Origin: an uncultured Alphaproteobacteria bacterium
GTDB lineage: Bacteria > Pseudomonadota > Alphaproteobacteria > RF32 > CAG-239
Length of the DNA: 64,000 bases
Direction of reading: 5' to 3'
NCBI GenBank assembly: GCA_944391615.1
Contig: CALXUE010000001.1
Location: forward strand, 134,550 to 198,549
Below, one piece after another: positions 6,457-7,433 of this stretch (position 1 is its first letter; every line of letters starts with the position of its first letter). Position numbers and translations under genes: made by a program. The notes beneath the pieces are model-generated. The model was not told the DNA's origin, did no database searches, and was given only the letters and a program-made list of their open reading frames with translations.

Positions 6457-6610
6457 AACATAAAAATATAAGTTAAAATAATATAAATAAAAATCTCAAA
6501 ACAGGCTCTTTTTAAGCCACAAAGCAAAACTTGTCAACCACAAAAAAACGGAGCTAACATAGGAGTAAGTGAGCATTTTTTCTGTCCACTAAATCTGTAT
6601 GAGATAACCA

Positions 6611-7433
6611 CTATACGAACTTTGCAAAACTGAGAAGAACAGTACAGATAGAGGCATTTCTAGTTGCGAGAAAAATTTTAGCCTACATAGAAGTAGGTGA
6701 CCGAGCAAAATATCCGACAATTCTGTATTAGTCGACCACAGAGCGAACTTTTCAAAAAGTTTGGAGAACGCGGCAAATAATAAGAAATAAGAAAAATTGT
6801 GAAGGAGTGTACATAATAGTACATGACTGAACAATTTATTCGCAATTTCTGTATTAGTTGCCCGTTATACGAACTTTTCCCAAACTGAGAAGAACAGTAC
6901 AGATAGAGGCATTTCTAGTTGCGAGAAAAATTTTAGCCTACATAGAAGTAGGTAAATTTTTCGAGACAACGTAAAATGCCTCTAGATGCGCTGTTATGCA
7001 CAGTGTTTTCAAAAAGTTCGGAGAATGAGTCGAGTAGTAGGCGTCAAGGGCAAAAGTACCACTGCCGCAAAAGAAAGCACTTGAATGTGCTTTCTTTAAG
7101 GATAAGCAATGAGACTTTCCTTTGTTAGAATGCGACAGCTTCGCAACAAAGGTCTAGTCGGAATTGGTACAAACTAGTACGTGAGGACACTTTTGTCCCG
7201 CAGACAACGCACTAATCGACCATTATACAAACTTTGCAAAACTGGGAAGAACAGTACAGATAGAGACAACGTAAAATGCCTCTAAATAAATAAACTTTAC
7301 AAAAATTTGATATGTGAGTCGAATAATAAGAATTTAGGAATTTTGCGAGTAAGCGTACATAGAAGTACGTGACCGAGCAAAATATCCGACAATTCTGTAT
7401 TAGTCGACCACAGAGCAAATTTTTAAAGGGTTG
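6611..7433. repeat. Noncoding region with three degenerate, partly permuted tandem copies of a roughly 200-250 bp unit, plus a unique spacer carrying a strong hairpin
   Basis: Copies at about 6611-6768, 6843-7035 and 7212-7433. Exact shared cores are gaccgagcaaaatatccgacaattctgtattagtcgaccacagagc (6698-6746 and 7370-7416), gacaacgtaaaatgcctcta (6966-6985 and 7266-7285) and gagaagaacagtacagatagag. Hairpin agaaagcac-ttgaat-gtgctttct at about 7072-7097. Confidence 0.7.

Follow-up and report, generated by a model that had tools for sequence, protein, structure and literature searches.

ERIC elements are MITEs (miniature transposable elements with inverted repeats) of ~127 bp that are co-transcribed at the 3' ends of genes and affect mRNA decay through RNase E (PMC3184786, PMC10969869); the same reviews report them only from Enterobacteriaceae and Vibrionaceae. 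Another short element, sX9, was described in Xanthomonas as a 75-nt small RNA (sRNA) confirmed by northern blot (PMC3300014), and is listed as one of the sRNAs annotated most often in bacterial genomes (PMC9029176), which fits sX9 being a repeat. Here we analyse a 64,000-nt stretch of DNA from an uncultured Alphaproteobacteria bacterium (contig CALXUE010000001.1, positions 134,550 to 198,549; hereafter the window) and, within it, the spacer between the start of a 178-amino-acid (aa) open reading frame (ORF) and the stop codon of infB (6457-7422). This spacer is a head-to-tail cluster of ~130-nt hairpin repeats belonging to a proteobacterial intergenic family. The family is spread through Proteobacteria and includes, or is closely allied to, ERIC/IRU, a repeat of the E. 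coli pyrH-frr spacer and the sX9 element. We think it probable, though by no means assured, that the tract consists of ERIC/sX9-type miniature palindromic repeats lying in the infB 3' untranslated region (UTR), where recombination between copies has rearranged them. For a compact genome the non-coding gap is oddly large, and it is thereby explained by a repeat cluster and not by a lost gene.

Hairpin repeats fill the infB spacer

Repeat finding in the spacer returned a 76-nt family with four copies (at 6552, 6680, 6806 and 7352), a 78-nt family with three (at 6621, 6876 and 7233) and several inverted repeats. Within the 64-kb window a 20-nt core has three occurrences, all in this spacer, against 0.01 expected; the repeats are thus real and, as far as the window goes, local, as an earlier examination of the bare letters (the sequence-only reading) had proposed. 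Longer stretches are also shared exactly, of ~72 nt (6627-6698 = 6882-6953) and of ~48 nt (6698-6745 = 7370-7417). The repeat unit is not the 200-250 bp module of that reading: it is a long hairpin of ~125-140 nt, and a period of ~255 nt appears because two sub-types alternate.

Each unit is an imperfect hairpin in which a conserved tip (AG-YGTAC-AnAGAA-GTACR-TGA) joins the 5' arm to the 3' arm, with an A run and a T run on either side, the unit ends being (T)AAAAGTTCG...CGAACTTTT(A). When copies are aligned, the stem of the tip varies by compensation (CCTAC..GTAGG, CGTAC..GTACG, TGTAC..GTACA) with alternative tails next to it, and the arms are variable in sequence while their complementarity is kept.

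Two models of the family were used: R1, built from 39 copies from about 20 species, and the covariance model R2, built only from metagenome copies. Tiling of the tract with R2, filters off, gave six units, and repeat finding with strain comparison a tip-deleted remnant; seven units or remnants in all cover 6523-7431 on the + strand, of which three are intact and four are partial, chimeric, interrupted or tip-deleted (Table 1). They have 32-38% G+C and abut without spacers. Intact units (139-147 nt) fold as RNA into single long hairpins of -46 to -54 kcal/mol, with z values of -7.5 to -8. E3 is 79-84% identical to copies at other loci (L049, L087 and L011), and the differences between E4 and its relatives in L037, L041 and L054 are compensatory stem changes. 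E6 reaches into infB: the 9 nt by which its 3' end overlaps the gene comprise the stop codon (7423-7425) and the last two codons.

The remaining units are damaged in different ways. E1 has either lost its 5' arm or has it overlapping the region upstream of the 178-aa ORF, and shows no long-hairpin fold (z about 0). E2 combines an H sub-type 5' arm (6621-6679) and a tip (6680-6700) with a P sub-type 3' arm (6701-6757); its arms come from separate repeat families, D2 and D1, and, as read from the sequence, are not complementary. In the H-type remnant the 5' arm ...CAGATAGAG is fused straight to the 3' arm GAGACAACGTAAAATGCCTCTA, at a position that holds a complete unit in L001, L002 and L006.

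E5 is interrupted by a 108-nt insert, and its counterpart is unbroken in strain contig L008 and in L014. The insert is 85% identical in L049, from another species, is found also in L058, and is absent from L008, from the same species; possibly it is a small structured element of its own, or else a bidirectional terminator. A unique spacer of 176 bp carrying a hairpin with a 9-bp stem had been described at this point. Only the insert answers to that description, since 7036-7058 and 7167-7211 are arms of E5, and the hairpin does exist, with a stem of 11 bp (7071-7098). Similarly, the palindrome aacttttcaaaaagtt, which had been placed within units, marks the point where a unit's 3' end meets the 5' end of its successor.

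Table 1. Repeat units, the insert and associated features. Coordinates are those of the window unless a locus is named.
Feature	Position	Strand	Description and scores
E1	6523-6608	+	Degenerate; tip GGAGCTAACATAGGAGTAAGTGA and 3' arm reaching about 6627; R2 30.3 bits; R1 34.5 bits (6482-6631)
E2	6618-6741	+	Chimera; R2 39.5 bits
E3	6747-6885	+	Intact, P sub-type; R1 125.1 bits, R2 114.5 bits; -46.0 kcal/mol, z -7.7
E4	6872-7018	+	Intact, H sub-type; -53.9 kcal/mol, z -7.5; R2 65 bits (6886-7002)
E5	7004-7243	+	Split by insert; 5' arm 7004-7058, tip and 3' arm 7167-7243; R2 matches 7004-7101 (23.2 bits) and 7113-7243 (18.8 bits)
Insert	7059-7166	.	Two hairpins, 108 nt, inside E5; fold z -5.2 (+), -5.6 (-)
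H-type remnant	7233-7290	+	Tip deleted; repeat families D2, D5
E6	7293-7431	+	Intact; R1 110.9 bits, R2 107 bits; -49.1 kcal/mol, z -8.0
infB	7423-9975	-	Pfam IF-2, GTP_EFTU, IF2_N; array in its 3' UTR
178-aa ORF	5920-6456	-	Downstream of array, first of a paralog pair; no Pfam family
nusA-ylxR unit	L011 5249-5419
nusA-ylxR unit	L058 5267-5403
nusA-ylxR unit	L083 4780-4922
nusA-ylxR unit	L075 4780-4907
nusA-ylxR unit	L090

The small ORFs that cross the repeats had been judged unlikely to be genes, a judgement that we share: they have no Pfam match. Two kinds of peptide were considered. Mini-ORFs of the + strand (MTEQNIRQFCIS...) are rejected, since each of their apparently synonymous changes has a compensating change in the other arm of the stem, other members of the family have ATA or ACA in place of the start codon, and there is no Pfam match; minus-strand hydrophobic peptides of type I toxin-like character come from ORFs that are not conserved across sub-types. 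A search for tRNA and tmRNA genes found none. A promoter scan of the tract did no better than shuffled sequences, and terminator calls were not per-unit. Rfam scans, of the window at gathering scores and of the tract at E 10, returned only chance matches to microRNAs and sRNAs.

Units recur in other species and in metagenomes

An infB-based scan showed the source to be an uncultured gut alphaproteobacterium and provided a set of 80 related-species loci. Using BLAST, nhmmer and a hairpin scan, homologous units were found in about 20 of the 80 related species, 3' of infB and at other intergenic sites. R1 matched the window in the infB spacer only, and recovered 43 copies across the 80 loci at several differing intergenic sites. 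Stem pairing is conserved among these copies: RNAalifold found compensatory changes in 23 of the 27 consensus pairs (39 copies, about 20 species), and the H sub-type of L037, L041 and L054 differs from that of the window by many paired changes, such as AGAGGCATT/AATGCCTCT versus AAAGGCAAC/GTTGCCTTT.

Identity among the window units is 63-71%, compared with 75-84% to units of other species, indicating that the array is made of old, distinct sub-types and not of recent local duplicates. These data bear on the proposal, also raised by the sequence-only reading, that the tract is a decayed local duplication or the remnant of a pseudogene, with its cores found only here and no family elsewhere. Several units are indeed partial or chimeric, and the exact stretches of 48-72 nt point to recent local copying or conversion. 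However, other sites, other species and metagenomes have homologous units too, the similarity between neighbours is lower than that between counterparts from different species, the ORFs lack a Pfam match, and stems are maintained by compensation. We regard decay of a local duplication as extremely unlikely.

The family extends well beyond these relatives. The tip pattern AGYGTACAHANNAGTACRTGA was found in two viral contigs and in at least 120 metagenome stretches, whose sources are gut, rumen, soil, sediment and groundwater. Long hairpins enclose 107 of 124 matches, and the surrounding sequence has 30-60% G+C. Among 70 distinct metagenome copies, 92.8% of cells are paired (versus 68% in shuffles and 28-53% with slid partners) and double changes number 424 (versus 111 in shuffles), figures that lean towards the structure because the alignment was fitted to the model. 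RNAalifold gave almost no structure on this model-fitted alignment owing to its gaps, and pairs were therefore counted on the model structure. A BLAST search with a metagenome copy against plasmids matched two records, both gammaproteobacterial. An ERIC-like family is extended by these finds to uncultured gut Alphaproteobacteria and to many environments. As for the two IMG/VR contigs classed as viral, which carry units at L091 7778-7880 and at L092 1268-1409 and 6464-6602, prophage regions and host contamination are both possible.

Units are placed at stop codons

All copies at the related-species loci are intergenic; their centres lie 49-63 nt past the stop codon of the preceding gene, to which they keep a single orientation. 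A second set consisted of 95 distinct metagenome copies in the arbitrary orientation in which they were fetched: in 52 of them an ORF of at least 100 aa on the opposite strand ends, on the 3' side of the unit, with its stop codon 50-75 nt away from the centre, against 4 for the mirror arrangement (p 1e-11). TAA, TGA and TAG are all used as stop codons at the units so placed.

The nusA-ylxR spacer offers an example. It measures 16-50 nt in most species and contains a full unit in five loci (L011, L058, L075, L083 and L090; Table 1), so that a member of the family sits inside an essential operon. In L011, L058 and L083 the nusA stop codon lies within the unit, which alters NusA's final residues; the C-terminus of InfB, for its part, is preserved with or without an adjoining unit. 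In the window itself the nusA-ylxR spacer (10549-10609) holds a short hairpin.

A hairpin that lies between runs of A and of T (AAAAGTTCG...CGAACTTTT), right after a stop codon, is also what one would expect of a long intrinsic terminator, possibly bidirectional, and the units could be terminators that diverged in place, neither mobile nor part of a deeper family. Against this, Alphaproteobacteria, Yersinia, Aeromonas and E. coli share a conserved tip, which is unexpected for independently evolved structures; copies lie inside the nusA-ylxR-infB operon, where strong termination would do harm; the stems beside the T run are AT-rich; and termination has no need of seven successive units. In our view this makes the terminator explanation distinctly unlikely.

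If the tract is instead made of ERIC/sX9-type repeats, its units would be transcribed with the upstream gene as a 3' UTR, in this case that of infB on the minus strand. The resulting RNA hairpins, flanked by A and U runs, could influence 3'-end formation, mRNA decay or ribosome release, by analogy with what has been described for ERIC, Correia and REP elements, and an sX9-like fragment that extends from tip to distal end may be processed from them. For the units of the window we infer both this RNA role and mobility. Placement at stop codons and the conserved tip provide two handles on the long-unanswered questions of how ERIC-type elements spread and what they do.

Arrays differ between strains

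At least 22 metagenome contigs encode a 178-aa protein identical to that of the window, and these served as our strain set. Their flanks are 98.8-100% identical to the window, and their spacers measure 690, 797, 966, 1169, 1258 or 1269 nt, with the same modules in differing order and number. One spacer (L007) is identical to that of the window. Two contigs from different samples (L003 and L010) have a common 797-nt arrangement apart from a few substitutions, so the array variants are not merely assembly noise. The strain junctions that we examined fall at differing short shared stretches inside units, for example AGACAACG, and not at a single fixed site. Such arrays could have grown by the repeated placement of differing sub-types side by side, and recombination at short shared stretches would reshuffle them continually, yielding chimeric, interrupted and deleted units and strain-specific arrays. 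They break metagenome assemblies, as several strain contigs end inside the infB array, and could serve as strain markers.

Some strains carry additional DNA in the array. A 487-nt cassette, missing from the window, is found in L003 (9349-9835), L001, L002, L004, L005 and L010, and is truncated in L008. Its insertion point corresponds to a position near 6623 of the window and it is bounded by direct repeats of a unit's 3' end. The whole cassette lies on the window + strand and consists, in this order, of a near-consensus promoter (TTGACA-N18-TATACT), ~170 nt of structured sequence with a terminator-like hairpin and T run, and a gene for an 86-aa XRE/HTH_31 protein (an XRE-type helix-turn-helix). 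It had no match in Rfam.

Cassettes of this sort raise the question of whether the units act at the DNA level, as hairpin or cruciform sites of an integron-like or other site-specific system, with the array being a series of mostly empty cassettes able to capture genes. Strains differing by whole modules and a cassette lying between direct repeats of the unit's 3' end would fit such a system, as would a tip that is a conserved GTAC-N6-GTAC inverted repeat and a strand-symmetric pattern of mismatches. Yet the Pfam calls for ten strain contigs, covering 10 kb around the array, include no integrase or recombinase family, and the unit ends, as read from the sequence, lack the R''/R' consensus of integron attC sites (RYYYAAC / GTTRRRY). 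Moreover, the breakpoints examined lie at varied short homologies inside units, and copies elsewhere are mostly single and without cassettes. A site-specific system of this kind seems to us very unlikely, and we favour recombination between ERIC/sX9-type copies.

Relation to ERIC, sX9 and other repeats

The family resembles ERIC in several respects. Like ERIC, an imperfect palindrome of ~127 bp, the intact units of the window are imperfect palindromes that fold into one long hairpin, and the centre is the most conserved part (ERIC tip GGAGCTTACATAAGTAAGTGA, window-family tip GGAGCGTACATAGAAGTACGTGA). The family is, as ERIC is, intergenic, beside stop codons and with an orientation preference (52 versus 4 in the count above); in the one E. 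coli ERIC copy examined, at ybhJ-ybhI, the end of the element is 4 nt from the ybhI stop codon and the relative orientation is that of the window family. The window-family tip is similar to the ERIC core consensus GTGAATCCCCAGGAGCTTACATAAGTAAGTGACTGGGGTGAGCG without a BLAST-level match; the 44-mer that we take to be the ERIC core is present in 5424 of 5426 E. coli genomes. E. coli ERIC aligned to the models end to end and in consistent orientation, weakly to R1 (13.7 bits, E 0.085) and at 22.5 bits to R2 (E 0.007), so that homology has modest statistical backing. Differences exist too: the hosts of the window family are Alphaproteobacteria and unassigned metagenome bacteria, its tip loop is 2 nt longer, its tip stem is GTAC and not TTAC/GTAA, and neither TATAC...GTATA ends nor a TA duplication as in ERIC could be found in it. 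As a side observation, the ybhJ-ybhI copy of ERIC (L213 1459-1582) scores 46.9 bits with Rfam V_AS5 (Vibrio antisense RNA AS5), less than the gathering score, which suggests that V_AS5 was built on an ERIC-type repeat.

A second link leads to Gammaproteobacteria through a high-GC metagenome copy, which has BLAST matches at the tip in Yersinia frederiksenii and Aeromonas caviae. R2 gives one full-length match per gammaproteobacterial locus, with 38.1 bits for Yersinia frederiksenii (E 1.6e-6), 33.7 bits for Aeromonas and 24.2 bits for E. coli pyrH-frr (E 0.003). Homologues of the Yersinia copy number about five per E. coli genome, including one in the K-12 pyrH-frr spacer. The K-12 copy (L217 1138-1271; NC_000913.3, about 192637-192770) is an unannotated palindrome of ~130 nt, distinct from ERIC. 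This repeat is intergenic, about 130 nt long, and has a tip (ACCGGAGCGTACAAAAGTACGTGAGGAT) almost as in the high-GC metagenome copies; it differs from the window family in its opposite orientation relative to flanking genes and in not abutting a stop codon. It may correspond to the old 'RSA' repeat, of which the original K-12 annotation counted six copies of 150 bp (PMC5172473).

The third link is to sX9. Among high-GC copies found by the tip pattern and matched by R1, the Rfam sX9 model (RF02228) scores 49.1 bits in L175, above its gathering score of 44, as well as 38.4 in L134 and 36.5 in L172; the Yersinia copy scores 40. These matches are on the gene-sense strand as defined by the placement rule, and run from the tip to the distal end. 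The sX9 model covers half of the hairpin, and sX9 has been described as a single-locus sRNA and not as a palindromic repeat. The suggestion that the tract might represent a small RNA family thus has indirect support: a metagenome relative (L175) reaches the sX9 threshold of at least 44 bits and L134, L172 and L214 nearly do, while the window copies fall outside the model. Overall, these comparisons suggest that ERIC, a second E. coli repeat and Rfam sX9, which have been catalogued separately, belong together.

Other families are more distant. REPs are GC-rich elements of 20-40 nt that alternate in orientation and are linked to RAYT transposases. REP/BIME elements share with our family a palindromic nature and a clustering in 3' UTRs; the window units, in contrast, are about 130 nt, AT-rich and in a single orientation. 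Of the three earlier suggestions, that of a REP/BIME-like element came nearest: the tract is a cluster of palindromic repeats that are dispersed between genes, but they belong to the long, ERIC type and not to the short GC-rich REP type. REPs located no more than 15 nt from a stop codon affect translation termination and mRNA decay (summarised in PMC5082802). Correia/NEMIS, RPE, RUP and other MITEs are likewise small non-coding palindromes, often at gene 3' ends and co-transcribed there, their hairpins are substrates of RNase III or RNase E, and the elements are hotspots of genome plasticity (PMC3184786, PMC10969869). We found no sequence similarity between them and the window family; they have defined terminal inverted repeats and target duplications, whereas the window family is conserved at its centre and no duplication was seen.

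Strand preference and the proposed role

A number of observations weigh against reading the tract as co-transcribed ERIC/sX9-type repeats. First, it is the gene-antisense strand that folds better, in 33 of 39 copies and by a mean of 6 kcal/mol (for the + versus the other strand, -46.0 versus -34.2 kcal/mol in E3 and -49.1 versus -42.6 in E6), and this strand alone carries a near-invariant G.U pair (64 of 67 lettered cells) and tandem G.A at the tip; this would fit a function on that strand instead of the gene-sense one, or a DNA-level role. Second, the arms have 72 G.U and 45 A.C oppositions, an excess so small that it argues weakly for an RNA of one strand and is compatible with a DNA-level palindrome or with maintenance on both strands. 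Third, marks of transposition are scarce: no target-site duplication could be defined (fold boundaries gave spurious outer pairs and no empty-site pair was close enough), no terminal transposase-type motif was found, and no transposase appeared among the Pfam calls of the strain contigs, with no systematic search of the window or of a complete genome. Terminal inverted repeats, a generic feature of MITEs, are present in that the whole unit is an inverted repeat. Finally, the E. coli pyrH-frr and Yersinia xylA-xylB copies are oppositely oriented relative to their flanking genes, the link to ERIC goes no further than E 0.007, and Rfam sX9 has no match in 6300-7600 even at E 10.

The strand data lend themselves to another explanation, in which the units are independent sRNA genes of the + strand that face the end of infB in antisense; the product of each would be a hairpin RNA of ~130 nt, with the conserved tip as the binding site for a protein or target. 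The better fold of that strand and its G.U closing pair and tandem G.A agree with this, as does a GC skew that turns positive across the tract. But no conserved promoter or terminator accompanies each unit, the units abut without spacers, and the placement rule links them to the end of a gene on the other strand, which is also the strand of sX9, the sole relative seen experimentally; in addition, the balance of G.U over A.C in the arms is far below the excess usual in RNAs. Independent sRNA genes are thus unlikely.

Returning to ERIC/sX9-type repeats, a broader version of this explanation can be put forward tentatively. ERIC, the pyrH-frr-type repeat, sX9 and the alphaproteobacterial units might all be one ancient, proteobacteria-wide 3'-UTR module, in which a conserved host factor would read the asymmetric tip, with its G.U and tandem G.A next to a GTAC stem, placement at the stop codon would control ribosome release, mRNA decay or the production of sX9-like sRNAs, and tandem arrays would act as recombination platforms that gain and lose small cassettes, such as that with promoter, RNA and XRE gene. 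Taken as a whole, we consider this scheme conceivable but unlikely.

Two features elsewhere in the window are worth recording. The 178-aa ORF next to the array forms a paralog pair with the adjacent ORF 5261-5800 (179 aa); both lie on the - strand and neither has a Pfam family above threshold. In addition, a 991-aa ORF (352-3327) with a C-terminal trypsin-like domain contains a 27-nt tandem repeat (2396-2455; 2.2 copies, 96% matches), and its length in strain contigs is 851, 973 or 984 aa.

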